Positions 32,075-64,000 of a stretch of DNA of 64,000 nucleotides are shown here, piece after piece (positions within the stretch are counted from its first letter, which is position 1; each line of letters begins with the position of its first letter). Position numbers and translations under genes: made by a program. The stretch spans positions 1 through 64,000 of the IMG/VR virus record IMGVR_UViG_3300019142_000010. One strand, 5' to 3'. The DNA comes from a virus. The notes under the pieces are model-generated. The model ran no database searches. It saw only the letters and a list, made by a program, of their open reading frames with translations, and had not been told where the DNA came from.

Positions 32075-32229
32075 TCCTCTTCCTCTCTCAGCAGACAAAG
32101 CATGCAGGTCTGTTTCTGCTTTTCCTCTGTGTACGCGCAGCCGTCGCAAATCAGATCGTCACACTTTTTGCAGACGACCGCGATGCGGTGCCGCTCGCGG
32201 CATTTGTCACAACGATCCTTGAAAGCCAT
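32071..32229 (-). CDS. Small zinc-ribbon protein
   Basis: 52 aa, MAFKDRCDKCRERH..CKKCDDLICDGC..CMLC. GGAGGG lies 4 nt upstream of the ATG. Confidence 0.45.
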   Translation of the reverse strand: MAFKDRCDKCRERHRIAVVCKKCDDLICDGCAYTEEKQKQTCMLCLLREEEE

Positions 32230-33529: not shown

Positions 33530-33780
33530 CAGTTATTCACCGCCTGTTGCTGGACATATTCACGATAAGCCGCGCGCGCGGCTTCCCGCTTGGTCAATCC
33601 CTGCTCGCCGGCGTGACAGTCTTTCGTCCCGCCGAACGCGGCGCATTCGCGCCGAATATGTGTCGCAGAGCCGGAGACAGCGCGGAAGATGCATTCGGGA
33701 TGCATGGCTTCTTTGCCGTTGTTGACCGGGACTCGCTTCTCGCCCGGCTCAAAAGTTTCTTTGCAATGCAGACATTTCAT
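33529..33780 (-). CDS. Hypothetical Cys/His-rich protein
   Basis: I prefer the start MKCLHCKETF at 33780, which does not overlap the upstream gene. Confidence 0.4.
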   Translation of the reverse strand: MKCLHCKETFEPGEKRVPVNNGKEAMHPECIFRAVSGSATHIRRECAAFGGTKDCHAGEQGLTKREAARAAYREYVQQQAVNN

Positions 33781-33784
33781 AAGA

Positions 33785-34063
33785 TCATGAGTTAATCGGG
33801 GGAAAGATTGAGTCAATCAGTCTGCCAGTCTCAAAATCCGGCGCGATAATGATTTCGCGCCCGTCTCCTAGGGCAATGTTCCCCGGTCGTTTGCCGTGGC
33901 CGCAGCATGAAGCGACTGTATGCACGCCCGCATCGTTTAATGCCCGGACGATTGGAGCGATGCAACTGTCAATATCTTTCGTGTCCCAACGAGCCTCGCC
34001 GGTGTGAGACAGATGCGCGGGAATTAACACCCTCAATAATGTCGTGTCGCCCCATTTACACAT
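33785..34063 (-). CDS. Hypothetical protein with ASCCGHG motif
   Basis: I prefer the start MCKWGDTT at 34063, which overlaps the upstream stop by 1 nt. Confidence 0.4.
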   Translation of the reverse strand: MCKWGDTTLLRVLIPAHLSHTGEARWDTKDIDSCIAPIVRALNDAGVHTVASCCGHGKRPGNIALGDGREIIIAPDFETGRLIDSIFPPINS

Positions 34064-34602
34064 TATTTTCTTTTCACCAAGCCCTGCCGCAAAACAAACT
34101 GATGTGAAAGGTAGCCGGGACATTCACCCTTCTTAAATCGAGGAATCTCCACTACCTGTAAGTCGCAAAGCTCACAGATGTACGCTTGTTCATCGAACAA
34201 CTCCAAAAAGGGCGGCAAGATGTCATCAGGGATTCTCGTCATGCTGCGCGGGTAGCGCACCCATCCCCAATCCTGGCTGTACAGCCGGCGCAGGCCGCGC
34301 ATGGTCAATTCCTCGCGCTCCGGGTAGTAGATGGCATTGCCAACCGGCGCCATAAATTTGTTATCGCACTTCGGGTTGTCGAACACTTTGCCGATGTTAT
34401 GGAACGGCTCGCCGGTGATCGTCACTCGGCCGACGATGCGCGCGACCGGCGCGGTCAGATAGACGAAAGCGATGTCACCGACTTTCGCGCCCTTCGGGAC
34501 TGACCACCACCACTGTTCGGTGTCCAGCCGGTGCTGCTCAAAGGCCGGCAAATGCTCCGGGCCGCTCATGACGATGTAGTACGCGAGAGTGTATTCAGTC
34601 AT
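34063..34602 (-). CDS. EVE/PUA-like (ASCH-type) domain protein (candidate)
   Basis: The start MTEYTLAYY at 34602 has an ATGA overlap. VPKGAKVGDIAFVYLTAPVARIVGRVTITGEP matches the strand pattern of EVE/ASCH PUA-fold domains (from memory). A C-terminal CxxC follows. Confidence 0.45.
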   Translation of the reverse strand: MTEYTLAYYIVMSGPEHLPAFEQHRLDTEQWWWSVPKGAKVGDIAFVYLTAPVARIVGRVTITGEPFHNIGKVFDNPKCDNKFMAPVGNAIYYPEREELTMRGLRRLYSQDWGWVRYPRSMTRIPDDILPPFLELFDEQAYICELCDLQVVEIPRFKKGECPGYLSHQFVLRQGLVKRK

Positions 34603-40800: not shown

Positions 40801-41597
40801 CTGAGGTTGAGGCGCGGGCGAGCCAGGACGTACGGCACGTTGCGCCATTCAACGAGCATCCCTTCATAGCCTACCTGTCGTTGCCAGGTCTTGTATTCAA
40901 ACGTCTCACCTGTGAAGTCCTCGCGCCGGACGAGGCGCATCGCGTCGCGCGACCCGGGCGCGTGGCCGCGGCCGATGTCAACGTAGAGTTCGCGCCCGAA
41001 CTGGAAGGGGCGGCGCACTCTACCAATCGTCACCTTGTCGGCGGAATAAGACTCGCGGATGTCGCCGCCCGTCTCCAGGCGCTCCGGGTCAACCTCGACC
41101 GTGAGGCGTTCGGCCGTCAAGTCTCCGAGCGCCTCGCGCTCCGGGCCGGATTGCGAGCCGTACACGACCGTTTCTTTCTTCGGCTGGCGGCGTCGCTCGT
41201 CGGCGGCGGCGTGACGTTGCAGGGCTGAGAGCGCGCCCTGATTGGCCGCCTCTGTGATGTTGGCCGCGGCCGCTCCGTTCATGACGAGTTCGACGGCCGC
41301 CGGGAGTTCCACGCCGGCGACGAGATGCCGGCAGATTTGCAGCCGTTCGCTGCACAATTCCAGATGCGCCGTGTGGTCGCGCTCGGCGTACTGGTCGCCT
41401 TCGGCGCGCGCCCGCTCGATGTGCCGTTCGTGCCCGGCGATGGATAATTGTAAATCTTCCTCGGTGCGCTTCCAGACGGCGGGCAGTTCAAAGCCCGCGA
41501 ACGCCGTCAGGCGCGGGCGCAGTTGAAAATAGTCACGATGCCCGTCGGCGCGGGCGCGAACGCGTTGGTCACGATATTTTTTTCCTGCTCTACGCAT
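37866..41597 (-). CDS. Large polyvalent-type protein with C-terminal N6-adenine DNA methyltransferase domain
   Basis: 1243 aa. The C-terminal ~220 aa carry motif I (ILEPEAGGAHI) and motif IV (NPPF). A central zinc ribbon is present (CQRCGYVTPNHSLTCPH). No Walker A was seen. The long helical N-terminal regions resemble the LPD-type modules of polyvalent proteins (from memory). Confidence 0.8.
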   Translation of the reverse strand: MRRAGKKYRDQRVRARADGHRDYFQLRPRLTAFAGFELPAVWKRTEEDLQLSIAGHERHIERARAEGDQYAERDHTAHLELCSERLQICRHLVAGVELPAAVELVMNGAAAANITEAANQGALSALQRHAAADERRRQPKKETVVYGSQSGPEREALGDLTAERLTVEVDPERLETGGDIRESYSADKVTIGRVRRPFQFGRELYVDIGRGHAPGSRDAMRLVRREDFTGETFEYKTWQRQVGYEGMLVEWRNVPYVLARPRLNLRPRDPRRDRLRAASVPTHTLATDAQLHVAAVASFTRPDELFKYQDIFRLPLVVENFAPSDERFTAAERAQICAATSAKQAELEARFAFGYWRINDIAHQMFERIGRAVGQEQKHKVDFITLELSDGSRWSVRRGALSYVTREEVLAVWPEAFTAAASNATGDADASANAQPEGTGSAETAAPVPTGGRCQRCGYVTPNHSLTCPHFDDTPPPPPITDGDGATADEQPGVALEEVRRYFSETILQPETDAAAHVAMFRRVIVSRPQLTDELNKFKKGRLECIGGIGSRGERKDELVERIVWDLIEDFTFGRLRAGGVSMRYFNDQAYRLELITKTVNALTDDDLDAHREGVAASRARYEAAQAERERAVTNPQTLEDFETCIRQRGIAALKRDKAMIPKGRGKSYEIERMIRVAGERELNEEELARFDELRADVAHERRAGLMIEKANIRRIEIGEGNYMEIVKSYHDKRQCEIWVVVLAEREDRTTFEELCIAARKLDGNYQREWKPTNTPGGFRFFSEAQAEKFVQLQSRDVFEISRLEKLLANRERVRQNAIGHFGVLADRMEDRATDALNSPRRLNTERRIMQAERADDTAREQLAMADTLRNYARDLQARLTRHTDRIRWRTHAEALDEILARAGGDVAKVAYPWPSVGKHTLAEIAREIGDRDGSKLVSSRILKLCREHVSDEIRFIGDERADLLRHFYRRARLHRTSRWTLDRIREALGHFKRLRLMNIDSLPELRAALREHLGRRVAVAEMTRAERVMREMYPGQFPPDYFPTPPDVVELMLEHAAIEDGMTILEPEAGGAHIANIVRDRYPNSELTLIEIAGLLVRALEAQGYRPIHDDFLRLPVPETGFDRVIANPPFGCDGLGTDITHVRRMWEWCKWGGRITTLMSEGVFYRGDGRAQEFRAWLEHVGGESFELPEGAFENSDRATSWAARIVVIDKIEQPGAGADVSSFIPAAAASSPALLSTSLN

Positions 41598-42264: not shown

Positions 42265-43143
42265 CTAACCTCTGAGGCAAGCTATTTCGAGAACCCACGC
42301 GGGCGACGGCGGGAGCAGCGCGCCGCGCGTGATGCGGTCAGCGATGAAGGGGTGGGCGAGCGGGGCGATCTGCGCGGCCAGCTTGAGCGCGTGATCGAGT
42401 TCGTGCGGGCGCAGCCCGATCTGCTCAAGACGGCGGCCGAGGTAGGAGAGCATCTTGACCGTGCCCGTCTCGTAGGTCGAGAGCGTGATGAGACGTGCGG
42501 CCAACTCGTCGCCGTAATCGGTGCGCGGGACGACGCGATAAACCGGCTCCGCGAAGAACGCGCCGTTGCCGCCGCACTGCTGGCAGCACATGATGGCGTC
42601 GTCCTCGCAGGCGTAGAAGGGCAGCGTCACGCCCTTGCCGCGACAGCGGGTGCAGGTGTGATGCTTGCGGTAGAAGTCGCTGATCGTCTTGCCCGGGTGC
42701 TGCTGCTTCCAGGCGAGGACGGTGGCGATTGACGGCGGCTCTGCGAAGTCGGAGAGACGGATGAAGCCGAACCGCTCGACCGCATACCGGCGCTCGCCGT
42801 CCAGCACCACGACGTCCGCCACCGAGAGCGAGCGATCCGTGTACCCGAACGGGTGATTGATGTTGAAGATTTGATAGACGCTCTCCAGCCGGGCGTGATC
42901 GTCGGCGTCGGCGTCGAATCTGATTTCACCTTCCCACGCGCGGCGCAGCTCGTCGGCGGCGTGATACTCGGTGAAGCGGTGGCCGTGCGTCTCGTTCAGA
43001 TAGATGGTGACGTTGACCATCGCCGTGACGGTGGGCGGGATGATGCGGAAGCTGCTCGCCTCGGAAAACTCTACTGCCCCCGTCGCCGCCGAGGGCGGGA
43101 TAGGGAACGACCTTGCGCTGTCGCGCTCAATTTCAAGTAGCAT
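42265..43143 (-). CDS. Hypothetical protein with zinc-finger cluster (first gene after P3)
   Basis: 292 aa with CTRCRGKG..CCQQCGG. GAAGGA lies 8 nt upstream of the ATG at 43143. An alternative start is at 43023. Confidence 0.5.
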   Translation of the reverse strand: MLLEIERDSARSFPIPPSAATGAVEFSEASSFRIIPPTVTAMVNVTIYLNETHGHRFTEYHAADELRRAWEGEIRFDADADDHARLESVYQIFNINHPFGYTDRSLSVADVVVLDGERRYAVERFGFIRLSDFAEPPSIATVLAWKQQHPGKTISDFYRKHHTCTRCRGKGVTLPFYACEDDAIMCCQQCGGNGAFFAEPVYRVVPRTDYGDELAARLITLSTYETGTVKMLSYLGRRLEQIGLRPHELDHALKLAAQIAPLAHPFIADRITRGALLPPSPAWVLEIACLRG

Positions 43144-47433: not shown

Positions 47434-48825
47434 ATGGACGAGGGCAGGGAACGAGTCCACCGGCAGGGGGTGTCGTCCATGGTAAAGACGACGGAACCTC
47501 CGGCCACCAAACTCTTAATCAACGAAACCCCGCTGCAATTTCTTCCGACGCTCGCCGTGCTCATCGGCGACCGCCCGGCGCTCGCCCTGCAACAAGTTCA
47601 CTACTGGCTCAACAACGTCAACGAGCACGGACGCCGCACGGCGCATCTGCGCGAGGGGCGCTACTGGATTTACAACAGCTACGATGACTGGCACGCCGAC
47701 AAGTTCAAGATGTGGTCATTGCCGACCATCAAGCGCGTGTTCCTGTTCCTCGAACGAGAAGGCATCGTCGAGACCAGGCAATACGAACTCTCGGAAGGAA
47801 ACGGGCGGAAGTGGTACACCATCAACTACGAGCGCGTGACGGAGATCGAGCATTGCGGAGGATTGACACAGAAACAGAAACGGCGCACGCGAGCGACGAG
47901 ACAGCCCGGCCAGGACGCCGACGAAGAGTTGTCATTCGACGCCATCGGGGGGGGTGGGATCAATTTGATCCCACCCCCCCCGATGGATCAAATTGATCCC
48001 ACCTTCGGATCAGAACGATCCGTTCTCTTAGGTACAGAGAGAACTACACAAGATCGAATACCACATGCTTCGCATGGCGAAGCGAGCGAGAACGGCGGGG
48101 CGACGGCGTTAGCCCTCATCCCGCTGCGCGGGGAAGCGGCGGCGGCGACGACCGCGGCGCACGCGCAGCGCCTCGTGGTCGAGACGGACACGGTGGGCGA
48201 GTTGATCGCGGCGGCGATGCAGGCGGGCGTCCCCGTCACCGAGGACTTGATCAACGATGCCGAGCGGGTGGCGCGCGAACTGGCGCGGGGCGCGCTCGGC
48301 GGGCGGCGCCGGCCGGAGGACTGCCCGGCGTGGTTCATCCGCGGATGTTTCGGCGTGCTGCGCAACAAGGTGCGCACGTTCCGGGACGAAGACGTGCAGG
48401 GCGCGGCGGCCAAGCGGCTCTGGGCAGACTTTTGGACGATTGAGCAGGTGGCGTGGTGCCTGGACCTGCTCTTGCGTGACCCTTATCGCAAAGACTGTCG
48501 CGAGTCGTTGCTGACAGTCGAGCGCGAGATCGGCACCCGATACGCGAAGGCGTATCGAGCGACGGACGGAACAACCCCACACACAACACAACCAGACGGA
48601 AAGGACACACCAGGATATGAAAGCAGCAGCACTTTTGGAACGGCCGCCGGAGCCGGAATTGAGGCGCGAGCCGCCGACAATTACGGCGGTTTCTGCCAGC
48701 AGCCCGCAGCAGCAGCAGCAGCAGCGGCACCAGCAGCGGTTGAAGATACTGGCGCAGTTGTTGGAGGACGCGCTCATCACCTCCAACTTGTCGAACGTGA
48801 AGACGGACGAGGCGCGGCTTCGTGA
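47434..48825 (+). CDS. Replication initiator / replisome-organiser-like protein (alternative start 47479; 3' end uncertain)
   Basis: The N-terminal wHTH-like pattern LALQQVHYWLN..GRYWIYNSYDDWHADKF..WSLPTIKRVFLFLEREGIVE is typical of phage O/DnaD-like initiators (from memory). The ori-like repeats lie in its linker. Confidence 0.5.
   Translation: MDEGRERVHRQGVSSMVKTTEPPATKLLINETPLQFLPTLAVLIGDRPALALQQVHYWLNNVNEHGRRTAHLREGRYWIYNSYDDWHADKFKMWSLPTIKRVFLFLEREGIVETRQYELSEGNGRKWYTINYERVTEIEHCGGLTQKQKRRTRATRQPGQDADEELSFDAIGGGGINLIPPPPMDQIDPTFGSERSVLLGTERTTQDRIPHASHGEASENGGATALALIPLRGEAAAATTAAHAQRLVVETDTVGELIAAAMQAGVPVTEDLINDAERVARELARGALGGRRRPEDCPAWFIRGCFGVLRNKVRTFRDEDVQGAAAKRLWADFWTIEQVAWCLDLLLRDPYRKDCRESLLTVEREIGTRYAKAYRATDGTTPHTTQPDGKDTPGYESSSTFGTAAGAGIEARAADNYGGFCQQPAAAAAAAAPAAVEDTGAVVGGRAHHLQLVEREDGRGAAS
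47943..48026. repeat. Candidate origin: 43-bp perfect palindrome plus iteron-like repeats and GATC cluster
   Basis: Positions 47943-47985 read catcggggggggtgggatcaa-t-ttgatcccaccccccccgatg. The 20-bp unit GGGATCAAtTTGATCCCACC recurs as TGGATCAAaTTGATCCCACC 28 bp downstream. The palindrome cggatc-agaac-gatccg lies at 48006-48022. Confidence 0.6.
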
Positions 48826-49473: not shown

Positions 49474-50217
49474 GTGAGCGTTTTGGCACCGTCGCGCCTC
49501 GGCGACTTTTTCTCTCAATACCTCGCACCGTTTTCCTCGCACGTGCACCGCAATGTGGAGATGGTCTGCGCGCTGATGACGGCGCGCTGTCTGGTGACGC
49601 AGGAACACCTGGAGCGGACGGCCATCTACGCCGACGGGATGGCGGAGATTTTCGGGCTGTCGCGGGAGCGGCGGCGCGCGCTGCGGATCGGGGCGCTGTT
49701 GCATGACGTGGGGAAGATGGGAGTCCCGGACGAAATTCTGCATAAGCCGGGCAGACTGACGGCCGCGGAATTCAACGTCATGAAGCTGCACCCGCAGATC
49801 GGGGAGCATATTCTGGCGCAGAATCACTTTCCGGTCGGCGTGACGGATTGCGTCCGCTGGCATCATGAGCGATGGGGCGGGCGGGGCTACCCGGACGGCC
49901 TGAAAGGGAAGGAGATACCGATCACGGCGCGCATTCTGGCCGTCGTTGATTGCTACGACGCGGTGCGCGAGGACAGGCCCTACCGCGCCGGGATGGACCG
50001 GCAGGAGGCGATAGACGTGTTGCGGTGCGGCTCGGAGACGATGTTCGAGCCGCTCATCGTGAAAGCCTTCGTCCAGAATTTGCACAAATTTGAACGGGAG
50101 ATAGAAAGGCACAAAGTTTCCTATACGCCGTCGCGCATCGCGCCTTCCACCCTCACAGCGGAAGCGCGGGCGGTCGAGCCGCCGCAGGGCCTCGACCCGC
50201 CGCCGCTCAAGGCCTAA
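49474..50217 (+). CDS. HD-GYP domain phosphodiesterase
   Basis: It has LLHDVGKMGVPDEIL, HPQIGEHIL, HHERWGGRGYPDGLKGKEIP and AVVDCYDAVREDRPYR. It is a stand-alone domain with no receiver or sensor. Confidence 0.8.
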   Translation: MSVLAPSRLGDFFSQYLAPFSSHVHRNVEMVCALMTARCLVTQEHLERTAIYADGMAEIFGLSRERRRALRIGALLHDVGKMGVPDEILHKPGRLTAAEFNVMKLHPQIGEHILAQNHFPVGVTDCVRWHHERWGGRGYPDGLKGKEIPITARILAVVDCYDAVREDRPYRAGMDRQEAIDVLRCGSETMFEPLIVKAFVQNLHKFEREIERHKVSYTPSRIAPSTLTAEARAVEPPQGLDPPPLKA

Positions 50218-54829: not shown

Positions 54830-55324
54830 ATGAAGGGGCTTGCTCGTCACTCACCACGGGCGAACCGCGTTATGACATACCCTCACGTTTCGGTCCAGCT
54901 ACCACCGGCTGGCGAAGGGTTCACGACTTATAATCGGGAACTAAACGGCGCAGACCAATACGGCACCAAATCGACCATCGAGCGGATCGTGGAGATAGGG
55001 CGTCGCTGGCGTGCGTCTTCTGCAATTCCCTTTGCGGTTGGCGACATCAGCCGCAAAGGCGGCGGCGTCATGCCACCTCACAAGAGCCACCAGTTAGGCG
55101 TGGATTTCGATCTGCGGCCTCTCAGGACGGATGGAAAGAACCTTCCCTGTGAATTCTCGGCACGCGAATACTCACGCGACCTCACCCGCCGGCTAATCGG
55201 CGTGATTCGAGAAGTCAACCCGCAGGCGAAAGTATTTTTCAACGATCCGGTGCTCATCAAGGAAGGGCGCTGCGCATTTCTCTCCGGCCACCACAATCAC
55301 CTGCACATTAGATTCGTCGGGTAG
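54830..55324 (+). CDS. Endolysin: MepA-like (peptidase M74 / LAS family) murein endopeptidase
   Basis: The zinc-site motifs PPHKSHQLGVDFDL and GHHNHLHIRF match the H-x-S-H-Q-x-G-x-D-x-D and H-x-H signatures of LAS metallopeptidases. Confidence 0.75.
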   Translation: MKGLARHSPRANRVMTYPHVSVQLPPAGEGFTTYNRELNGADQYGTKSTIERIVEIGRRWRASSAIPFAVGDISRKGGGVMPPHKSHQLGVDFDLRPLRTDGKNLPCEFSAREYSRDLTRRLIGVIREVNPQAKVFFNDPVLIKEGRCAFLSGHHNHLHIRFVG

Positions 55325-56444: not shown

Positions 56445-57404
56445 ATGAGCACTGCAACACCCGCCCCGCACAGCACCGCACAAGAGACGCCGCGCCCGCG
56501 CGTCCTCAAGGCAAAAGACCGCGACGGACGGAAGAGCGGCAAAGGAGCCAGCGCGCCGCCCGAGGCCGCGCCCGCGCGCACGGCGACGTGGGTTGACCGC
56601 TTCGTGCGCCGCGAACTGGAAGACCCGGCGCAATTGCTCGGCAATGACCTGAACTGGCGCGGGCATCCCCGCTACCAGCAGATGGCCATGATCGGGGTGC
56701 TCGAAACGCTCGGCTGGCTCGATGAGGTGAAAGTCAACATCAACACCGGGCGCGTCTTCAACGGCCACATGCGCTGTGAGATTGCGATCTCGAAGGGCGA
56801 GCCGGTGCCGACGAGCTACTACGATCTGACGGAAGAGGAAGAGCGGATGGCGCTGGCCACGTTCGACCCGCTGGCCTCGCTCGCTTTCGTTGCGAGCAAA
56901 GAGAACTACGACGCTCTGGCCGACCTGCCGGGCGTCGCGCAGGCCGCCGACGGGCTGCAAAAGCTCGTGGCGCACATGGCCGGCCGGGGCAACATCCAGG
57001 CGGCCTATGAAACGAATTTTCTCTCAGGATTTTTGGATGCTGCCAGCGCAGAGGCGACGACGACCGCCGGCGCGCAGGCACCGGGAGCTGCTCCGGGCGC
57101 GAGTGGGAACGCGCCCGAATCTGTTGCAGGGGCGGCTTCCGTGGGCGACGGCCAAAGAGGAACAGCGCCGGGTCTGCCGGGGAGTGCTTCGTTAGTGGAG
57201 GCGGAGCATGCAGACCCGAGCGCGGCGGCCGTCGCCGAATATCTCAAGGTCGTCTTCGCGTTTCTGCCGCACCAGAAGCGCGCGCTGTTCGACCTCATCA
57301 ACCGCACGCGCAAGGAGCGTGCGTTGGGCGAGGCGACGCAATCGGAAATTTTATTGATTTTGTTGGGGGTGCCACTGAGCGATGATTCTGATACCGCGAG
57401 CTGA
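56445..57404 (+). CDS. ParB N-terminal-like (ParB/Srx fold) domain protein
   Basis: NWRGHPRYQQMAMIGVLETLGW..VNINTGRVFNGHMRCE follows the N-x-R-x-H..Q..(D/N)GHxR pattern of ParB-like nuclease domains. The C-terminal half is low-complexity. Confidence 0.55.
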   Translation: MSTATPAPHSTAQETPRPRVLKAKDRDGRKSGKGASAPPEAAPARTATWVDRFVRRELEDPAQLLGNDLNWRGHPRYQQMAMIGVLETLGWLDEVKVNINTGRVFNGHMRCEIAISKGEPVPTSYYDLTEEEERMALATFDPLASLAFVASKENYDALADLPGVAQAADGLQKLVAHMAGRGNIQAAYETNFLSGFLDAASAEATTTAGAQAPGAAPGASGNAPESVAGAASVGDGQRGTAPGLPGSASLVEAEHADPSAAAVAEYLKVVFAFLPHQKRALFDLINRTRKERALGEATQSEILLILLGVPLSDDSDTAS

Positions 57405-58113
57405 GAAGGGCGAATCAATCGACGCCCTTGAAACCATGTACCCGTCACGCCTCGTCGTGGCGCGCAACCTTCACACGCAGACCGTCTCGACGACGACGAG
57501 CTACGGCTTCGTGGTCGAGGGTGAAGTGACGTTGCGAGTTGACCTGAACGCCTACGAGCTGTCGCGCGGAAATTTCTTCTGCGTGCCCGGCGCATTCACG
57601 CTGGAGAATTACAGCCCCAACGGGCGAGTGGTCATCATCGAGCGGCTGGGCTATCGCGGGATGCTCTCAATCGGGCGCATCGAGCGGAAAGGCCGGCTGT
57701 CTTACATCGACGGCTGCTCGGATACGCTGCTCGTCGCGCCGCCGCGCCAGGGCGACCCCTGCTTTAACTTCCTGCACTTCCCTCCCGGCATCGACCAGAC
57801 GCAGCACACGCACCCCTCGATCCGCTTCGGCGTGGTCGCGGAAGGGCGCGGCGTGGCTTATCAGGCGACGGGCGCGGCGAGCGTCGGGTGGGAGAAGGAG
57901 TTGAACGAGGGAGACGTGTTCCTGCTCGAAGAACAGGAGCTTCATTCGTTCCGCACGACGCGGCTGCCGGGCGACGCCGGGCCGACGCACATGAACATCA
58001 TCGCATTCCACCCGGATACGGACTGGGGCGCGACCGACCAGAATCACCCGATGCTCAATCGCACCTACATCGGGACGACGCCGACGCCGGCGGGACAGTA
58101 CACCGCCACCTAA
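57382..58113 (+). CDS. Cupin-fold protein (alternative start 57436)
   Basis: Cupin motif 1 is like QHTHPSIRFGVVAEGRG and motif 2 is like GDVFLLEEQELHSF. Confidence 0.55.
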   Translation: MILIPRAEKGESIDALETMYPSRLVVARNLHTQTVSTTTSYGFVVEGEVTLRVDLNAYELSRGNFFCVPGAFTLENYSPNGRVVIIERLGYRGMLSIGRIERKGRLSYIDGCSDTLLVAPPRQGDPCFNFLHFPPGIDQTQHTHPSIRFGVVAEGRGVAYQATGAASVGWEKELNEGDVFLLEEQELHSFRTTRLPGDAGPTHMNIIAFHPDTDWGATDQNHPMLNRTYIGTTPTPAGQYTAT

Positions 58114-58119
58114 CAGCGC

Positions 58120-58335
58120 ATGATTACGCCGACCGGACGGACGACACAGAACACGAGGGAGCGGCTGGCGCTGACGTACAACGAACTGCGCAGCTACGTT
58201 GAACGACAATGCGGCCGCTGCCGCCGCGCCGAGTGCCGGTCATGCGCGATGCTCCGGAGCACCGGGGGCAAGGCGCTCAGAGCAAGATCGGAATGGGCGT
58301 TGAAATGCCCGGATCGCGTTTACACCGTCCGCTGA
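58120..58335 (+). CDS. Hypothetical small protein
   Basis: 71 aa with CGRCRRAECRSC. Confidence 0.35.
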   Translation: MITPTGRTTQNTRERLALTYNELRSYVERQCGRCRRAECRSCAMLRSTGGKALRARSEWALKCPDRVYTVR

Positions 58336-58387
58336 CTTACCCGGTCAGTATCTTCTTTGCAAAGTAAGTTTCCCCATCCTCACGACC

Positions 58388-58828
58388 ATGACCAAGAAAC
58401 TGATATTCGCTCTCGTCAACTTTCTCACGCTCGGCGCGCTGGCTCGCCGGCGACGACGCGCAACAGTCCAGCGCATCCAGGAGCGGACGCGCGCTCTGCT
58501 CGACGGCGCGACCCGGCAAGGCCGCCTCGTGATGGGTAAGGCGTTTCACCGCGCGACCATCTGGAAAGCCCTTGGAGCGCACCCGAAGGCGCGCCTGCTG
58601 CCCCGCAGAGTACGCCGGGCGGCGATGTTCAACGCGGCGAACCACGCGCACCGGTTGGAGCGTGGCATCGAGGTTGAAATGCTATCGCGCGGCCACCAGC
58701 GCCGCATGCGTCGCGGGTACATCGATCCCGCACTACTTTTGCCGACGGTGAAGGCGGGCGCGGACGAGACGCGCAGCTTCACGGCGACGGCAGACCAGGA
58801 ACAGCCGCCCATGCTGGCGGCTGCATAG
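58388..58828 (+). CDS. Hypothetical basic protein with N-terminal hydrophobic segment
   Basis: 146 aa. The start is preceded by catcctcacgacc. Confidence 0.4.
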   Translation: MTKKLIFALVNFLTLGALARRRRRATVQRIQERTRALLDGATRQGRLVMGKAFHRATIWKALGAHPKARLLPRRVRRAAMFNAANHAHRLERGIEVEMLSRGHQRRMRRGYIDPALLLPTVKAGADETRSFTATADQEQPPMLAAA

Positions 58829-59038
58829 TCGCTCCCTGATAGGAGCGACGGCCTCACGCCACCCCGCGCCGGCGAAGACTGGAGATGCACCGAGTCGACC
58901 ACGGGCGGACTAAGCGAACAGGCCACAAGGGAGAGCGGGCGCGCTCGGCTGAATGCGAAAGACGCCCAACAGTGAGACGGCGGCCGTCGTGCTTATTCAG
59001 AGTTGGCGGCCGCCATCTTCACTAGAGGATTTGAGACG

Positions 59039-59425
59039 ATGCCCGGAGTGAATGAACTAACCGAAGAAATCAAGCTGCTGCTCGCGCGGGAAGCGCAGGC
59101 GCCGGAGCGCGCCGACGAGCGGGAAGAGTTCAAGAACCTTCAGGAGCGACCGCAGGAGCTTTCGCCGGAGCGTGAGCGCGAGCTGATCGAAAAGTGGTAT
59201 CGGCCGTCCCCATTTGATTGGGGCGGGGAGATTCATTTCATGCAGACCCGCATCCACGAGCGTGATCTGTTCGTCCGCGAGTATATGCAGGAGCCGATGC
59301 CTCGCACGCCGGGCAACGACGATCTGCGGCGGGAGTTGGAGCGTTTCAAGCATCGTCTCGATGAGCGCAAACATAACCCGGACGTGGACGGCGCGGAGTG
59401 CGAAGTTAGAGGTTGCGACCAATGA
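59039..59425 (+). CDS. Hypothetical charged protein
   Basis: The start MPGVNELTEE has GAGGA upstream. Confidence 0.45.
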   Translation: MPGVNELTEEIKLLLAREAQAPERADEREEFKNLQERPQELSPERERELIEKWYRPSPFDWGGEIHFMQTRIHERDLFVREYMQEPMPRTPGNDDLRRELERFKHRLDERKHNPDVDGAECEVRGCDQ

Positions 59426-59562
59426 TTGAATTATTCCTCGTTTTATTCATCCCGCTGCTGCTCGGCCAGACCGTGCGCAGAGTCAGCCGCGGCTACAACC
59501 CGACCGCTGACATTTCCGAGATCACCGGCCGCCCGGTGACGATTGATGAGGTGCAGGGATGA
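59422..59562 (+). CDS. Small membrane peptide (46 aa, not in ORF track)
   Basis: My own translation gives MIELFLVLFIPLLLGQTVRRVSRGYNPTADISEITGRPVTIDEVQG. ATGA overlaps occur at both ends. Confidence 0.35.
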   Translation: MIELFLVLFIPLLLGQTVRRVSRGYNPTADISEITGRPVTIDEVQG

Positions 59563-59834
59563 AGCTCAGATTGCCCTCGCTCGCCGCATGGTTCTGGATC
59601 GAGGTCGTCGGGTCGGCCGCTCTGCTCGCGGTCTGGCTCATCGCGCCTGAGTGGGAAAACTGCCCGAGCTACATCATCGCGTTCGGTGGCTACATGAGCA
59701 TCGCCGTCAGTACGTCTGTCATCGCCTTCTATCGTTTACCGTGGCGCTCTCTGAGGTGTCTCTTCTCCCATGACGATTATCATCGTCAGCGCGCCAAGGA
59801 TGTGTGGTGTTTGAAGTGCGACCGCTATTTTTGA
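59559..59834 (+). CDS. Small membrane protein
   Basis: 91 aa with 2-3 hydrophobic helices and a C-terminal CLKCDRYF. Confidence 0.45.
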   Translation: MKLRLPSLAAWFWIEVVGSAALLAVWLIAPEWENCPSYIIAFGGYMSIAVSTSVIAFYRLPWRSLRCLFSHDDYHRQRAKDVWCLKCDRYF

Positions 59835-59839
59835 GTTGA

Positions 59840-60628
59840 ATGATGAAGTCAACGGTAGGAAAGAAACAGTCCGCGTATAACTCGGCCTTCGTCGCGCTCG
59901 CGGCGAACATCGAGCAGTACGTCTCGCGCGCCGAGATCGACAACCTGGTTGATAGAACGGTCGCGGAGATTCGGCGCGTGACGGCCGGCAAGCGCGCGGC
60001 CTATGCGTGGTCAGGCGGGAAGGATTCAATCGCCTTGGGGGGCGTCTGCCGTCTCGCCGGCGTTACGCCCTGTCTGCTCGGCATGACGAGCCTGGAATAC
60101 CCGGAAATGCTCGCGTGGCTGACCGACAACATGCCGGACGAGCTGACGGTGATTAACACCGGACAGGACCTGAACTGGCTGGCGAAAAATCTCCAGATGC
60201 TATTTCCGCAGGATGCGAAGACGGCGGCCACGTGGTTCAAGCAGGTGCAGCACCGGGCGCAGGAGCAATACTACCGGCAGGAACGTCTCGACCTCATCAT
60301 CCTCGGCCGTCGCCGCGCCGACGGTAACTATTGCGGCGCTCCGGGCGAGAACGTCTACACCTCGAAGGGCGTCACCAGGTATAGCCCCATCTGGCAATGG
60401 GGACACGAGCACGTGATCGCTTTCAATCACTACTACGGTCTTCCCTGCCCCCCGATCTACACGTGGCCGAACGGGTTTGTCGTCGGCACGGGAGCGTGGG
60501 CGGCCAGACAGTACACCGGCTCCATCGAGAACGGCTGGCGCGAAGTCTTTTCTATTGACCCTTCCGTGGTTGAAGGCGCTGCCACACGGATTGAGTCGGC
60601 GCGCTCTTTTCTGGCGTCGCGGTCGTGA
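59840..60628 (+). CDS. PP-loop ATP pyrophosphatase, PAPS-reductase-like (short form)
   Basis: The PP-loop is YAWSGGKDSIAL. LIILGRRRADG and WQWGHEHVIAFNHYYGLP are typical of the PAPS_reduct family. I did not see a CysH-type ECGLH motif. Confidence 0.75.
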   Translation: MMKSTVGKKQSAYNSAFVALAANIEQYVSRAEIDNLVDRTVAEIRRVTAGKRAAYAWSGGKDSIALGGVCRLAGVTPCLLGMTSLEYPEMLAWLTDNMPDELTVINTGQDLNWLAKNLQMLFPQDAKTAATWFKQVQHRAQEQYYRQERLDLIILGRRRADGNYCGAPGENVYTSKGVTRYSPIWQWGHEHVIAFNHYYGLPCPPIYTWPNGFVVGTGAWAARQYTGSIENGWREVFSIDPSVVEGAATRIESARSFLASRS

Positions 60629-61301
60629 CGGGACGCCGCATTTGATAAGTCAACTGTGAGTGCTGCGCAGAGCCGACGCGGTACACCTCAAACACACAAT
60701 CCTCCGGCAACTCCACCGCATCCTCATCATGAACACGAAACTTGAAGGAACTGAAATAGAACCGGCCGCCGCCGAAACGGAAGAACAGCGGCAGGCGACG
60801 CCGGGTGATGGCGATCTGTCGGCCGACGATCACGCCGACGGCGAAGGCCGGGGCGTCACAGAGCGAGAGCGCATGCAGGAGGCGCTCGCCGGCCGAACCC
60901 TGCTGCCGGGCAACCAGATGAGCCATCACCTCGCTGTCGCAGTCGCTCTGCGTGTCGATGCCATACGCCGCCTTCAGTTCTCGGAAGTTGTACAGGTTGC
61001 CATTGTGTACGAGCAGCGTGGATTGACCAGCCAGGAACGGGTGAAAGTTACGGAGGTCTTCCGACCCGCCGACGGTGGCGAGGCGAGCATGCCCGAGGGC
61101 TACACGAGCCGCGTCGAGTTCATCGAGTACCTGGAGCGACCGGCGCAGCGGCTCGCGGCTCCGGCATGCGTGAAGTTTGTCGGTTTCGTCGAGCCAGCCG
61201 ATGCCGTACCCGTCCATACCCCGACGTCCTGCCCCTTCTGCAATAGACCGCAGAACGCCTTTATCGTGTGAGTCGCCGGCGAAGCCGAAGATGCCGCACA
61301 T
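60552..61301 (-). CDS. Stand-alone class-II (Ntn) glutamine amidotransferase
   Basis: I prefer the ATG at 61301, giving MCGIFGFAG with catalytic Cys2. HARLATVG, NFHPF and LVHNGNLYN match class-II GATase signatures. The ORF-track N-terminal extension overlaps the divergent gene. Confidence 0.75.
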   Translation of the reverse strand: MCGIFGFAGDSHDKGVLRSIAEGAGRRGMDGYGIGWLDETDKLHACRSREPLRRSLQVLDELDAARVALGHARLATVGGSEDLRNFHPFLAGQSTLLVHNGNLYNFRELKAAYGIDTQSDCDSEVMAHLVARQQGSAGERLLHALSLCDAPAFAVGVIVGRQIAITRRRLPLFFRFGGGRFYFSSFKFRVHDEDAVELPEDCVFEVYRVGSAQHSQLTYQMRRPVTTATPEKSAPTQSVWQRLQPRKGQ

Positions 61302-61326
61302 AAATTTTTGATACCTCGAAATAGTC

Positions 61327-62451
61327 GTGACGATTCTCAAGAAACAAACGGTCGATCTGGATGTGCTGACGCTCTCGCGCCGGCGCATCGCTCGTCTCTT
61401 CGATGAGTTCGATGAAGTGTCGGTGATGTTCTCCGGTGGGAAAGACTCAACCGTCGCTCTCAATCTTACACTCGAAGAGGCCGAGCGCAGAAACCGCTTG
61501 CCCTTGGATGTGGTCTTTTACGATGAAGAGGCTTTGCCGCCTGAAACCATTGAATACTGCGAGCGCGTCGCCCGCGATCCTCGTCTCACCTTACGCTGGT
61601 ACTGCCTACCTATCCAGCACCGCAATGCGTGTTCTCGCAAAGCACCCTACTGGCATCCATGGGCTCCTGAGGATCAGCCCTTGTGGTGTCGCACCCTACC
61701 ATCAGGCGCGCTCACAGTATTGAGCGGTTTCAAACGGCAAGCCATCCCCCAGTGTAACGAACTCATCTACCCCGACCGCTCGAAGCGCACGGCCGTCGTC
61801 ATGGGCATCCGCGCCAGCGAATCGCTCCGGCGCTACCGCTCGGTCGCGCAGCGCGTCGAGGACAACTGGATATCGCCCGATCCCAACTGTCCGCACGTCT
61901 CACTGGTCAAGCCGATTTACGACTGGCTGACGGCGGACGTCTGGACGGCTCCGGCCGTCTTCGGGTGGGACTACAACACGACCTACGACGTGCTTTCACG
62001 TCTCGGCATTTCGCCTAACGATCAACGGGTCTGCCCGCCCTACGGGGAAGAGCCGCTTCGTGGTCTGTGGATGTACGCCCAAGGCTGGCCGGAGCTGTGG
62101 GAACGCATGACGCGCCGGGTACCGGGCGCTCGCACGGCCGCGCGCTACTCGCGCTCGCCGCTCTACGGGTTCGGCGCGGACGTCGAGCGCCCGGCCGGGC
62201 TCTCCTGGCAAGAGGCCATCGCGGCAGCGATTGAGAAGTGGCCGGCCGCACAGCGCGCGCTCATCGCCGAGCGCATCCAGTGGGAAGTCGAAAACCACTT
62301 TCGCAAAAATCCTCAGTCGTCCATCCCGGAGACTGACGCAACGATGTATGACGGCGGCGTGACGTGGCGTTTCCTCTACACGCTGGCCGTCCGCGGCGAC
62401 CTCAAAGGGCGCAGGCGTCCCGACATGCACGCGCCGAAGAAAAACGACTAA
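61327..62451 (+). CDS. IbrA-like PAPS-reductase/PP-loop protein with C-terminal extension, paralog 1
   Basis: It has MFSGGKDSTVAL, YDEEALPPETIEY, YWHPWAPED, CPPYGEEPL and ARTAARYSRSPLYG. The length and extension fit the PAPS_reduct+DUF3440 (IbrA) architecture, from memory. Confidence 0.75.
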   Translation: MTILKKQTVDLDVLTLSRRRIARLFDEFDEVSVMFSGGKDSTVALNLTLEEAERRNRLPLDVVFYDEEALPPETIEYCERVARDPRLTLRWYCLPIQHRNACSRKAPYWHPWAPEDQPLWCRTLPSGALTVLSGFKRQAIPQCNELIYPDRSKRTAVVMGIRASESLRRYRSVAQRVEDNWISPDPNCPHVSLVKPIYDWLTADVWTAPAVFGWDYNTTYDVLSRLGISPNDQRVCPPYGEEPLRGLWMYAQGWPELWERMTRRVPGARTAARYSRSPLYGFGADVERPAGLSWQEAIAAAIEKWPAAQRALIAERIQWEVENHFRKNPQSSIPETDATMYDGGVTWRFLYTLAVRGDLKGRRRPDMHAPKKND

Positions 62452-63581
62452 TGGGACTCAAAAAGGAAATCCTGGAGAAGAACGTCATGGAGCTTGCGCG
62501 CGAGCGGTTCGCGCGCTCGTTTGACGAGTACGACGACGTGGCCGTGTCTTTCAGCGGCGGCAAGGATTCGACCGTCTGTTTGAACCTGGCGCTGGCGGAA
62601 GCTCGCCGGCGCGGTCGCCGTCTGACGGTCTTTTGCTTCGACGAGGAAGCGCTGCACCCGCCGACCGTGGAATACCTGGAGCGCGTGGCCAGCCTGCCCG
62701 ACGTTGATTTCCGCTGGTACTGCATTCCGGTCGAACACCGGAACGCCTGCTCACCCAAGAAACCTTACTGGCATCCGTGGGCGCCGGAGGATCGCGCGCT
62801 GTGGGTGCGCGAGTTGCCGCCGGGCGCGATCACGGAGTTGCCCGGCCACCGGCGCGAGCCGATTTCCGGTTCGATGGCCTACTGCTTTCCGAACGAGGGG
62901 CGCACCATCGGACTCATTCTCGGCATTCGCGCCGATGAATCTCTGCGCCGCTACATGAGCGTGACGCACGCGGTCGAAGACAACTGGATCAGCGTGGACT
63001 CGCACGCGCCCTGGATGGCGAAATTAAAACCTATCTTCGACTGGACGGCCGACGATGTGTGGACGGCCACACAGCGCGAGGGATGGGACTATAACCGCAC
63101 CTATGACTTGATGGCGCGCGTCGGCATGCGCTACGTCGATCAGCGCGTGTGTCCGCCGTTCGGGGAAGAGCCGTTGGCCAACCTCTGGATATATCAGCAG
63201 TGCTGGCCGGAGATGTGGGAGCGGATGACCCGGAGAGTGCCGGGCGCGCGGACGGCGGCCAAGTATTCGCGCTCGCCGCTCTACGGTTACGGCGGCGTCC
63301 CGAAAGACCCCTCGAAGTCCTGGCAGGAGATGATTGCCGAACGCCTGGCGCGCTGGCCGGAACCCTACCGCACGGCCATCGCCAACCGGCTCCGCGGCGA
63401 GATTGAGCGCCATTTCGACAAGAACCCGGATGAGCCGATTGTTGACCGCAGAACCGACAACCCCGACGGCGGGCTGTCGTGGGAGTTCCTTTACATGGTC
63501 GCGCTGCGCGGCGATTTGAAGGGACGCAAGAAAGTCTTTTTCAAGAGCACCGAGAAGTTCCTCGCGAACAAAAAGAAATGA
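62451..63581 (+). CDS. IbrA-like PAPS-reductase/PP-loop protein, paralog 2
   Basis: The ATG at 62451 forms a TAATG junction. It is collinear with paralog 1 (SFSGGKDSTVCL, FDEEALHPPTVEY, YWHPWAPED, CPPFGEEPL, ARTAAKYSRSPLYG). Confidence 0.75.
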   Translation: MGLKKEILEKNVMELARERFARSFDEYDDVAVSFSGGKDSTVCLNLALAEARRRGRRLTVFCFDEEALHPPTVEYLERVASLPDVDFRWYCIPVEHRNACSPKKPYWHPWAPEDRALWVRELPPGAITELPGHRREPISGSMAYCFPNEGRTIGLILGIRADESLRRYMSVTHAVEDNWISVDSHAPWMAKLKPIFDWTADDVWTATQREGWDYNRTYDLMARVGMRYVDQRVCPPFGEEPLANLWIYQQCWPEMWERMTRRVPGARTAAKYSRSPLYGYGGVPKDPSKSWQEMIAERLARWPEPYRTAIANRLRGEIERHFDKNPDEPIVDRRTDNPDGGLSWEFLYMVALRGDLKGRKKVFFKSTEKFLANKKK

Positions 63582-64000
63582 ATTCCTCACTAATCAACCA
63601 GCACCCGATTTCGCAAGTTTACTGGGTCGATCCGGAGCGCGTCCGGGCCAACGACTACAACCCGAATCACGTCTTCGACGCGGAGATGGAGTTGTTAGAA
63701 CTCTCTTTGCTCGAAGACGGTTTCACCCAGCCGGCCGTGATTCGCCTCGACGAAGGGCTGACGCCGCCGCCGACGATGAAGGAAGCCTACCGGCTGGCCA
63801 TGATGGACGAGTTCGCGCAGGAGGGCGCTTTCGAGCCGTCGCTGGCGCACGTCTGGTGCGAGCGCGTGGCCGACCGTGCAGTGCGCATCATCATGGAAGC
63901 GTCATGTGTGATCACCGGCGAGATCGTGGACGGCTACCATCGTCGCACGCTCGCGCTCAAATCCGAGAAGGTACGCGCCAAGACGGGCGGCCTGCTCCCC
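63578..64000 (+). CDS. IbrB/ParB-like N-terminal domain protein (3' end beyond window)
   Basis: My own translation from ATG 63578 (ATGA overlap) gives MNSSLINQHPISQVYWVDPERVRANDYNPNHV..LELSLLEDGFTQPAVI..GEIVDGYHRR. This is the ParB-type DGxHR motif. Confidence 0.7.
   Translation, partial: MNSSLINQHPISQVYWVDPERVRANDYNPNHVFDAEMELLELSLLEDGFTQPAVIRLDEGLTPPPTMKEAYRLAMMDEFAQEGAFEPSLAHVWCERVADRAVRIIMEASCVITGEIVDGYHRRTLALKSEKVRAKTGGLLP

Follow-up and report, generated by a model that had tools for sequence, protein, structure and literature searches.

Gene content of the cassette

The phage recorded in IMG/VR as IMGVR_UViG_3300019142_000010 carries a cassette of genes for PP-loop enzymes, a stand-alone glutaminase, a cupin and two ParB-like proteins. 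We analysed positions 1 to 64,000 of this record, hereafter the window, whose phage identity is given by a large terminase (31-1605), a portal (1602-3098) and a major head protein (7258-8403). The cassette spans positions 56445-64000 and about 270 nt past the window end. It encodes, in order, ParB1, the cupin, three small open reading frames (ORFs), the PP-loop enzyme PPA, the glutaminase (antisense), IbrA1, IbrA2 and IbrB (Table 1).

An earlier note on this DNA, made by reading the sequence, had described the downstream part of the cassette as a five-gene cluster. The three SGGKDS ORFs it listed (59840, 61327 and 62451) are confirmed by a six-frame scan of the 64-kb window, where the motif occurs exactly three times (nt 60011, 61432 and 62553), always on the + strand and within 2.6 kb; all three ORFs carry a PAPS_reduct domain. 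The same scan returns one MCGIFG (- strand, codon from 61301) and one DGYHR (63929). The former opens the antisense class-II glutamine amidotransferase (GATase) that had been proposed, and the Pfam match of its product to GATase_6 (2.3e-15) bears the proposal out. The latter lies in the ParB-type protein at the cluster end, now matched to phrog_2159 (2.8e-24), and extension along a matching contig completes its gene at 230 aa. The five genes are real and co-conserved in sister phages, with 50-85% amino-acid identity; the cluster is larger than described, the ParB-like and cupin genes upstream, from 56445 on, having been missed.

The whole arrangement is common to these sister phages, in which a ParB-like gene, the cupin, PPA, the antisense glutaminase, two IbrA-type genes and IbrB are followed by the terminase genes. 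Sequence identity amounts to 50-53% for the glutaminase and 81-86% for IbrA2 and PPA. No match was obtained when the sister loci were queried for QueE, QueD and FolE.

A 65,487-bp metagenomic contig (ena:ERZ27286106:k141_800999) has a 141-bp terminal overlap, and the window is a rotated, nearly complete copy of it. Because of this terminal repeat, the phage genome is circular or permuted, with a length of about 65.3 kb. Roughly 1.35 kb of it, between window positions 64000 and 1, is absent; this segment completes the ParB-like gene and also contains a 33-aa ORF and most of a gene, upstream of the large terminase, whose product has 242 aa. Since only this short segment separates the window ends, the cassette lies directly upstream of the packaging genes (small and large terminase).

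The membership of the three small ORFs in the cassette is doubtful, and they are probably passengers. Only the 146-aa one has a homologue in the sister locus L002, and in other versions of the cassette the cupin directly abuts PPA or IbrA.

Distribution among phages and prophages

Profiles built from the window proteins yielded three sets of 80 related loci (240 altogether): one seeded with PPA in IMG/VR, one seeded with the cupin in IMG/VR, and one from GTDB species-representative genomes. Each set holds the best-scoring matches, near-duplicates included, so that the counts give prevalence among retrieved loci and not numbers of independent evolutionary events; neighbourhoods were surveyed by simple ORF calling with our own profiles, and absences are not exhaustive.

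IbrA and IbrB adjoin PPA in 78 of the 80 PPA-seeded loci, and the remaining two have IbrA, one of them at a contig end. A Na+/solute symporter (SSF) comes first in 74/80. The order SSF-PPA-ParB1-IbrA-IbrB is found in 58/80, where ParB1 is a second ParB-like protein in the slot after PPA; IbrB stands ahead of IbrA in 12/80. The cupin-seeded loci show the order ParB1-CUP-IbrA-IbrB (CUP, cupin) in 38/80, and the cupin lies beside another PP-loop family, P360, in about 20/80. Among the genome loci, SSF-PPA-ParB1-IbrA-IbrB recurs in 66/80. These come from genomes and metagenome-assembled genomes (MAGs) of Lachnospiraceae, Oscillospiraceae and other gut Clostridia, and presumably represent prophages. 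Cultured carriers include Anaerotruncus colihominis DSM 17241, Acetatifactor muris DSM 23669 and Otoolea muris DSM 111138; one gut-prophage cassette lies at NZ_CP102255.1:782580-795341.

IbrA and IbrB form the core that recurs, usually together with ParB1; PPA, the cupin or symporter, and the glutaminase are accessory. In phages and prophages the basic cassette is very common, and the window version is a rare, lineage-specific extension of it. At the nucleotide level, a search with the cluster against 50,697 phage records gave a single weak partial match only.

The glutaminase and its probable PP-loop partner

The glutaminase gene, also called as 249 aa on the matching contig, overlaps the 3' end of PPA by 77 nt (60552-60628). 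All of its homologues (at least 13) begin with MCG, which places the nucleophile Cys right after the initiator Met. Alignment of homologues at 27-53% identity shows that Cys2, RRG, GHARLAT, HNG(N) and DS(E/Q) are kept. By analogy with GlmS and PurF, we take the Cys of MCG to be the nucleophile, the Arg of GHARLAT to bind the glutamine carboxylate, Asn-Gly to form the oxyanion site and the Asp of DS(E/Q) to bind the α-amino group. Such motif conservation suggests that the glutaminase is active.

The protein stays below all curated NCBIfam cut-offs: 62 bits against 381 for GlmS, 46 against 267 for AsnB (TIGR01536), 45 against 350 for PurF and 39 against 219 for EgtC. When 1.84 billion representatives were searched exhaustively with HMMER, the nearest relatives proved to be 190-400 aa long and likewise stand-alone, and 59 representatives matched at ≤1e-30. 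Three of the four top relatives that were checked (P0246, P0247 and P0248) are encoded on contigs with PPA or IbrA homologues, and there the glutaminase adjoins PPA. A close-homologue search of IMG/VR with the glutaminase gave no match, and a word-indexed protein search gave four homologues; more were found by neighbourhood mining and by the exhaustive search.

The glutaminase (GAT) is encoded immediately downstream of PPA in at least 16 loci, that is, in every locus having one: the window (L001), L002/L003/L180, L004, L005, L013/L014/L017, L034, L081 and L097, and L177, L178, L179, L186, L199, L203, L217 and L220. The pair is found in three gene orders, CUP-PPA-GAT-IbrA-IbrB, ParB1-SSF-IbrA-IbrB-PPA-GAT and SSF-PPA-GAT-ParB1-IbrA-IbrB, and in both orientations. 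It is convergent, with 3' ends overlapping by 47-92 nt, in five lineages (as in L002, L013, L177 and L179), and co-directional in L081, L097, L178 (with a 1-nt overlap) and gut prophages. About 45 CUP-IbrA-IbrB loci without PPA have no glutaminase. Adjacency to PPA in three gene orders and the absence of the glutaminase from PPA-less loci make a strong genomic case for PPA, rather than IbrA, as its synthetase partner; the independence of these adjacencies rests on the three gene orders and on the 27-53% identity between copies. The earlier note had made the glutaminase an ammonia donor to the PP-loop enzymes as a group. That role is supported for the 262-aa PPA and does not extend to the IbrA-type enzymes. 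As the glutaminase directly follows one specific PP-loop gene, the two proteins look like a two-subunit, glutamine-dependent amidotransferase.

In the window, the glutaminase gene is antisense inside a + strand operon, its start codon 25 nt from the divergent start of IbrA1 (61301-61327). Given this distance, its promoter must be within IbrA1; a promoter and terminator scan around the gene gave no signal above shuffled expectation. A 203-aa + strand ORF (60660-61271) runs antisense through the glutaminase gene with the same GC content at third codon positions (0.72) and has no homologues; it is best read as a shadow ORF of a GC-rich gene.

The PP-loop enzymes

PPA has 1036 homologues at E ≤1e-3, and identity remains at about 55% between the window phage, of soil type, and gut prophages. 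Its invariant motifs are WSGGKDS, NTGQD, MLFPQD, GRRRADGN and ARQ(W/Y)TGS, together with one invariant Cys; it has no match at all in NCBIfam. IbrA2 has more than 1686 homologues at ≤1e-10 among 8000 scored candidates. Among cultured phages, 223 records contain IbrA-type genes, for which IbrA and PAPS reductase are frequent labels, and both window copies match the annotated IbrA of Escherichia phage PhiR5_2 (7e-43). Their PAPS_reduct and DUF3440 matches are above the Pfam gathering cut-offs.

IbrA1 and IbrA2 are encoded in tandem, the stop and start codons sharing one base at 62451, and are 55% identical. IbrA1 keeps the family invariants SGGKDS, DEE and GxRxxESxxR, and all invariant residues are present in both copies. 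The tandem pair is kept in L002, L004 and L180 and absent from most other cassettes. Retention of the invariants by both copies and conservation of the pair across the clade suggest a heteromer or a division of labour.

PPA and IbrA share only a 32-column match in a profile-profile comparison, and for this reason they are placed as distant members of one superfamily and not as recent paralogues. Both families are best read as adenylating enzymes, given their canonical ATP-type SGGKDS loops. The AlphaFold model of IbrA2 (pLDDT 90.3) has as its best Foldseek matches CysH-type PAPS reductases, the PAPS domain of human FAD synthase (root-mean-square deviation about 3 Å), FMN adenylyltransferase and CysD, with TilS/MesJ, TtuA/NcsA, LarE and the ATPPase of GMP synthetase (GuaA subunit B) ranked lower. 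A profile search of the PDB likewise stays at the superfamily level (CysD 1.8e-7, FAD synthase 7e-6). Single-sequence PDB searches with IbrA and IbrB gave no useful match, and a fold search of BFVD returned only the name 'PAPS reductase'. Profile positions 181-220 of IbrA also match PDB entry 9nto_B, deposited as 'Cap9', over a short stretch (3e-4) that may be nothing more than a shared motif of the PP-loop superfamily; Cap9 is the QueC-like accessory protein of type IV CBASS.

The CysH redox motif, reported missing in the earlier note, is indeed missing: ECG[LIV]H occurs in none of the six frames of the 64-kb window. Models of CysH and of PAPS or APS reductases score far below their cut-offs (TIGR00434, 18.6 bits against 165; NF002537, 18-28 against 154; TIGR02055, 19 against 235), and in support of the note the PP-loop ORFs are not the CysH of sulfate assimilation. 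The DndC model TIGR03183 gives 20-24 bits against a cut-off of 290, and weak PADLOC matches of IbrA1 and IbrA2 (2e-7 to 8e-6; DndC 2e-7, BrxP 7e-7) cover partial regions. No cassette protein matches a QueC or TGT family in Pfam or NCBIfam. An Asn_synthase domain is present neither in the glutaminase nor in its partner PPA, which belongs to the PAPS_reduct family. Altogether, the PP-loop proteins fall outside CysH, DndC, QueC and AsnB.

Close homologues of IbrA contain the cysteine motifs WYCxPxxHRNACS and RVCPP, for which we considered Fe-S or thiolation chemistry. These cysteines are lost in distant members of the family, where no invariant Cys column is found, and this loss argues against thiolation in the style of DndC, TtuA or TtcA. 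The genes called on the matching contig, with window segments 7106-9411 and 30177-34251 outside their coverage, have no recorded Pfam match to a cysteine desulfurase, as the note had stated, nor to TGT/DpdA, QueC, QueD, QueE, FolE or a DNA methyltransferase. Among the same recorded matches there is no ATPase of the DndD/SspC/BrxC type, and neither this ATPase nor a desulfurase was found in the 240 related loci screened, non-exhaustively, with our own profiles.

The ParB-like proteins

ParB1 residues 62-138 match the ParB-type N-terminal part of phrog_498, a family of ParB-methyltransferase fusions (1.7e-5), and both ParB-like proteins of the window touch this family. The gene overlaps the start of the cupin gene, and its syntenic counterpart in L002 matches at 6e-91. 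The gut-phage ParB1 profile finds the gene just ahead of the cupin in 50 of the 80 cupin-seeded loci; the window copy at 56445 is too divergent for a match. Gut ParB1 itself resembles the N-terminal part of PADLOC MTase_II (6.5e-17).

IbrB starts at 63578 in an ATGA overlap with the IbrA2 stop codon and reads NDYNPNHV...DGYHR, with the motif DGYHRR; the N-terminal domain of ParB CTPase clamps is marked by a GxxR(R) motif for nucleotide binding. It matches the 'IbrB' of E. coli phage PhiR5_2 (2e-30) and follows IbrA in essentially all related loci. Its orthologues in L008 and L179 have recorded matches to ParB_N and to TIGR00180 (1.7e-7). By analogy, the two ParB-like proteins may be activators that work on duplex DNA.

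Cupin, symporter and the P360 family

Among 64 homologues of the cupin, residues Q139, H142, H144, R148, E186 and H188 are conserved at ≥90%, as is the His/Asp-rich C-terminal block HPDxDxGPxDxxHPMxNRT; this pattern fits a metal site. A profile search of the PDB returns generic cupins only (E ≥0.1), and the single-sequence AlphaFold2 model (pLDDT 41) is unusable.

The symporter is full length (PF00474 3e-23, TIGR00813 5e-39) and scores below the PutP, PanF and ActP cut-offs. Within the phage and prophage cassettes it is encoded directly upstream of PPA and overlaps it, for example at L008:4617-6008, L178:1228-2685 and L237:4517-6001 and in about 140 more loci. It is unusual for a phage-borne transporter to be wired to PP-loop enzymes in this way. 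Cupin and symporter occupy one slot, ParB1-X-IbrA-IbrB. As they fill the same slot, we infer that they may be alternative supplies, by synthesis or by import, of one small molecule.

The cupin's other neighbour, P360, is a third PP-loop family (358-386 aa, motif MYSGGIDST) with no Pfam match. It occurs without IbrA in large, marine-type phage contigs (L146:5898-6977, L153:5853-6989, L155:7293-8438 on the - strand, L159 and L170-L176). In L146-L149, where no QueC is seen, the cupin and P360 have as neighbours a QueE-like protein, QueD (PTPS), an FMN reductase and FolE. These neighbours raised the idea of a link to 7-deazaguanine, which we set aside, as it is confined to this one lineage.

A candidate DNA-modification pathway

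We read the whole as an ATP-dependent, partly glutamine-dependent nucleic-acid modification cassette that would act on phage DNA before packaging, and put the probability of this reading at roughly 0.45. IbrA1, IbrA2 and PPA would be ATP pyrophosphatases that activate a substrate oxygen by adenylation, as their SGGKDS loops and nearest folds suggest. The glutaminase would hydrolyse glutamine and hand ammonia to PPA, the two forming an amidotransferase or amidoligase, a step for which gene adjacency and the catalytic residues speak; where no glutaminase is encoded, PPA could use free ammonia or another nucleophile. The two ParB-like proteins, one per enzyme set, would engage or open double-stranded DNA, by pure analogy with ParB-methyltransferase fusions and ParB-activated thymine dioxygenases, and the substrate would be replicated phage DNA awaiting packaging. 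The cupin in the window, or the symporter in gut prophages, may make or import a small co-substrate or precursor, as their shared slot suggests. The net product would be an amidated or aminated DNA hypermodification that shields the genome from host nucleases, with a base substituent, a base carbonyl or a backbone phosphate as the candidate modified atom. The cassette itself is real and conserved, and the DNA-amination mechanism of the earlier note is plausible.

The packaging-proximal position is one occupied by many phage DNA methyltransferases. It is this position, together with the methyltransferase-type ParB partners and published precedents (PMC6884629, PMC12783734, PMC13229309, PMC8989533), that points to DNA as the probable substrate.

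Several points weigh against the pathway as drawn. The choice of DNA is itself inferred, and a target atom is hard to name, because replacement of oxygen by nitrogen on the base-pairing edge of a duplex would be mutagenic. Of enzymes that could install a handle, no hydroxymethylase, TET/JBP, C5-methyltransferase, DpdA or kinase is among the recorded Pfam matches of the contig. Neither ParB1 nor IbrB has a helix-turn-helix (the central parS-binding domain of ParB clamps) or other DNA-binding Pfam domain, which leaves the clamp role named in the earlier note a putative one, and IbrB scores 16.3 bits with Pfam ParB_N, below the cut-off of 26.3. A Na+/solute symporter and a cupin are more typical of small-molecule metabolism, and the glutaminase could instead be a γ-glutamyl amidohydrolase of the EgtC type. 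We know of no amidotransferase in the PAPS-reductase superfamily and of no pairing of a glutaminase with one of its members. To our knowledge, the only genetics of IbrA/IbrB, from E. coli, concerns gene expression and not DNA chemistry.

A narrower version of the pathway seems to us quite unlikely in full. PPA and the glutaminase would then be the first amidotransferase of the PAPS-reductase/DndC branch and, with IbrA/IbrB and the second ParB-like activator, would, once the phage DNA has been replicated, swap one of its oxygens for nitrogen. If that oxygen were a non-bridging one of the phosphate, the backbone would become a natural phosphoramidate, the nitrogen counterpart of phosphorothioation; a base carboxyl or carbonyl is the other candidate target.

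Alternative explanations

The alternative that survives best, though we hold it unlikely, is a small-molecule or nucleotide pathway in which a precursor provided by the symporter or cupin would be adenylated by the PP-loop enzymes and then amidated by the glutaminase. Its product might be a cofactor, a compound that disturbs host immune signalling, or a modified nucleotide or base, the last either incorporated ahead of replication or inserted by a transglycosylase not recognised here, and the ParB/Srx-fold proteins would be nucleotide-binding enzymes instead of DNA partners. Such a pathway would explain why the full-length symporter is integral to the common version of the cassette, being present in at least 66/80 genome loci as well as in the 74/80 from IMG/VR. 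It agrees with the cupin in the symporter slot and with the pairing of the cupin with P360, beside QueE, QueD and FolE in one lineage. The solved structures nearest to IbrA act on FMN, sulfate and PAPS, and the short match to 'Cap9' points the same way. However, each cassette has two ParB-like proteins, of the type fused to DNA methyltransferases, and keeps a constant position beside the packaging genes; polymerase, kinase and transglycosylase partners were not detected, and the deazaguanine neighbourhood is limited to L146-L149.

Backbone chemistry similar to that of Dnd, Ssp or BREX-4, with sulfur, or here nitrogen, replacing a non-bridging phosphate oxygen, is very unlikely, as is the neutralisation of a host phosphorothioate (PT) defence. 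All four known PT systems employ a protein with a PAPS-reductase domain (PMC12914056), a PAPS-Dam fusion of a Vibrio phage has anti-Dnd activity, and an anti-defence role has been suggested for phage PAPS reductases under Aca control. The weak matches of IbrA1 and IbrA2 to DndC and BrxP, in PADLOC and with TIGR03183, fit this idea, but the DndC model remains far below its cut-off. With no invariant Cys in IbrA and one in PPA, a DndC-like Fe-S or cysteine-dyad site is unlikely; the genome has no recorded desulfurase or DndD/SspC/BrxC-type ATPase; and the associated donor is a glutaminase rather than a source of sulfur.

Regulation of late or prophage gene expression, without bulk DNA modification, has a similarly small chance. 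IbrA/IbrB were originally defined genetically by the activation of prophage (eib) gene expression, and late activators in many siphophages sit immediately upstream of terS. Homologues in cultured phages are annotated as 'co-activator of prophage gene expression', and ParB-family CTP switches can control transcription, as with KorB, cited in PMC13229309. A regulator would nevertheless need far less machinery than two or three strongly conserved catalytic PP-loop enzymes with a glutaminase and either a cupin or a transporter, and sequences that stay ~50-55% identical in very distant phages speak for a chemical substrate that is itself conserved.

Modification of RNA, by which the cassette would retailor host tRNAs in the manner of TilS, ThiI, MnmA, TtcA and TtuA, we rate a shade lower again. 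TilS/MesJ, TtuA and NcsA appear among the lower-ranked Foldseek matches, and tRNA chemistry by a PP-loop enzyme with an amidotransferase is established for archaeal Gat-QueC (PMC6884629). However, neither ParB-like partners nor a place beside the packaging genes makes sense for tRNA modification, no THUMP or PUA RNA-binding domain was detected by Pfam in the cassette proteins, and the Fe-S cysteines are missing.

That the genes encode viral CysH for auxiliary sulfur metabolism, as their Pfam and PHROG names and the routine 'host metabolism' annotation would have it (PMC11318856), deserves hardly any credence in view of the absent ECG[LIV]H motif, the CysH and PAPS/APS-reductase scores of 18-28 bits against cut-offs of 154-235, the canonical ATP-type loop, the lack of an invariant Cys in IbrA with only one in PPA, and the obligate ParB-like partners.

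Relation to known systems

The closest annotated relatives are IbrA/IbrB of E. coli prophages and cultured phages (COG3969, 'predicted PAPS sulfotransferase'), with the same two-domain IbrA and an adjoining ParB-like gene. The window cassette differs in its tandem IbrA and in the addition of a second ParB-like protein, a cupin, PPA and the glutaminase. Full-text literature searches found no mechanistic study of IbrA/IbrB, of DUF3440 or of this cassette, and neither the extended architecture nor the pairing of a glutaminase with an enzyme of the PAPS-reductase family was found described.

Gat-QueC with DpdA produces 2'-deoxyarchaeosine (dG+) in the DNA of phage 9g and protects it from restriction (PMC6884629). 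There, too, a class-II glutaminase and a PP-loop ATP pyrophosphatase put nitrogen into a group that ends in phage DNA. Gat-QueC differs in three respects: the glutaminase and QueC, which belongs to another PP-loop family and has a zinc site, form one fused protein; the enzyme acts on 7-deazaguanine, either free or inserted; and the pathway needs FolE/QueD/QueE as well as a transglycosylase. In the window phage, QueC, DpdA and FolE/QueD/QueE were not detected, and the synthetase partner is of the PAPS-reductase family.

CmoY, an AsnB homologue of Synechococcus phage S-B43, carries out ATP-dependent amidation of 5cxmC in DNA, and some of its clades are predicted to use glutamine (PMC12783734). 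In the CmoA/CmoX/CmoY system, as would be the case in our scheme, a substituent of a DNA base is adenylated at an oxygen after replication, at the expense of ATP, and an amine then attacks; the system includes a clade with a glutaminase domain and frequently has ParB-domain neighbours (PMC12783734). CmoY is, however, an asparagine-synthetase homologue and needs a carboxymethyl handle from CmoA and a C5-methyltransferase homologue, none of which is recorded here; its PP-loop family is also a different one.

DndC, SspD and BrxP are PP-loop proteins of the PAPS-reductase-like superfamily that act on DNA, and the cassette enzymes resemble them by weak profile matches. The enzymes described here score far below the family cut-offs and lack conserved Fe-S cysteines, a desulfurase and the DndD/SspC/BrxC ATPase; the donor would be glutamine nitrogen and not sulfur.

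ParB176 is needed for the phage thymine dioxygenase 5mYOX176 to act on double-stranded DNA, and GATases are among the thymine-hypermodification genes linked with the ParB-dependent subclass (PMC13229309). There a small ParB homologue with no obvious DNA-binding domain has its gene beside that of the DNA-modifying enzyme, an arrangement like that of the cassette. 5mYOX176 is an Fe/2-oxoglutarate dioxygenase, whereas the partners here are PP-loop enzymes, and the cupin has an HxH...ExH arrangement rather than the HxD...H signature of the dioxygenases. Thymidine-hypermodification clusters further carry amidoligase and amidotransferase genes without an assigned role (PMC8989533).

The two-subunit GMP synthetase (10.1101/2022.02.27.481963) offers a mechanistic template for PPA and the glutaminase in its separate glutaminase and PP-loop polypeptides, its adenylated intermediate and its ammonia transfer. 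GuaA differs in that its glutaminase is of class I (triad) and its ATPPase, of the N type, has XMP as substrate, in contrast to the class-II glutaminase and PAPS-reductase-like enzyme of the cassette.

With Gat-QueC/DpdA (PMC6884629), CmoY (PMC12783734) and the ParB-activated dioxygenases (PMC13229309) as precedents, the earlier note went too far in calling its route not described for phages. The component families are known and annotated; the particular enzyme families, and their combination, appear undescribed.

'PAPS reductases' of the IbrA and PPA types are among the most often reported auxiliary metabolic genes of phages and are usually read as sulfur metabolism. If the oxygen-for-nitrogen version were true, thousands of 'PAPS reductase (cysH)' auxiliary metabolic genes in viromes would largely be DNA-modification enzymes, and the replacement of oxygen by nitrogen on DNA by an enzyme of the DndC superfamily could be a categorically new chemistry. 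Should the DNA prove modified, the cassette would represent a widespread, chemically new class of phage genome modification, with bearing on restriction evasion, sequencing artefacts and enzyme tools; if it is not modified, a large conserved pathway is left. Complete cassettes in the prophages of cultured gut Clostridia make the question directly testable.

Genomic surroundings

Outside the cassette, the window contains the recognisable genes and long ORFs included in Table 1. No DNA polymerase or methyltransferase is recognised among its annotatable genes.

Table 1 Features of the cassette and of the remaining window; positions refer to the 64,000-nt window.
Feature	Position	Strand	Matches and remarks
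ParB1, second ParB-like protein, 319 aa	56445-57404	+	ParB/Srx-type N-terminal domain, Ala/Gly-rich linker, C-terminal part
Cupin, putative metalloprotein, 243 aa	57382-58113	+	Pfam Cupin_2 5e-11; putative supply or tailoring enzyme
Small ORF, 146 aa	58388-58828	+	no Pfam/PHROG match; L002 homologue 2e-16
Small ORF, 140 aa	59003-59425	+	no Pfam/PHROG match
Small ORF, 91 aa	59559-59834	+	no Pfam/PHROG match
PPA, PP-loop ATP pyrophosphatase, 262 aa	59840-60628	+	PAPS_reduct 8.3e-6, phrog_424 2.6e-20
Glutaminase, stand-alone class-II (Ntn) glutamine amidotransferase, 249 aa	60552-61301	-	GATase_6 2.3e-15, GATase_7 2.3e-7
IbrA1, 374 aa	61327-62451	+	PAPS_reduct 1.8e-11, DUF3440 9.7e-8, phrog_2302 2.2e-81
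IbrA2, 376 aa	62451-63581	+	PAPS_reduct 2.1e-12, DUF3440 1.5e-9, phrog_2302 7.9e-82
IbrB-type ParB-like protein, full length 230 aa	63578-64000, cut by window end (L001:12252-12944)	+	phrog_2159 2.8e-24
Tape-measure-domain protein, ~1800 aa	13995-19409
2361-aa ORF	20320-27405		no recorded Pfam match
1243-aa ORF	37866-41597	-	no recorded Pfam match
YodL-domain protein	42265-43143	-
DnaD-like helicase loader or replication initiator	47434-48825		phrog_6493, 1.6e-27
HD-domain protein	49474-50217
Peptidase_M74-like protein	54830-55324		2.7e-10

The sister-type 66-kb phage of locus L013 (ParB1-CUP-PPA-GAT-IbrA-IbrB) encodes a DUF5131 protein and a C5 DNA methylase (PF00145) about 4-6 kb downstream of its cassette (L013:15053-16783); the window phage has no such recorded match. 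Among the relatives, 63-66 kb in size, two contigs of sister phages have links to MAGs of Pyrinomonadaceae (Acidobacteriota) and thereby hint at the host: one of 65,121 bp carries proteins attributed by NCBI to such a MAG, and the other, of 63 kb, belongs to one.

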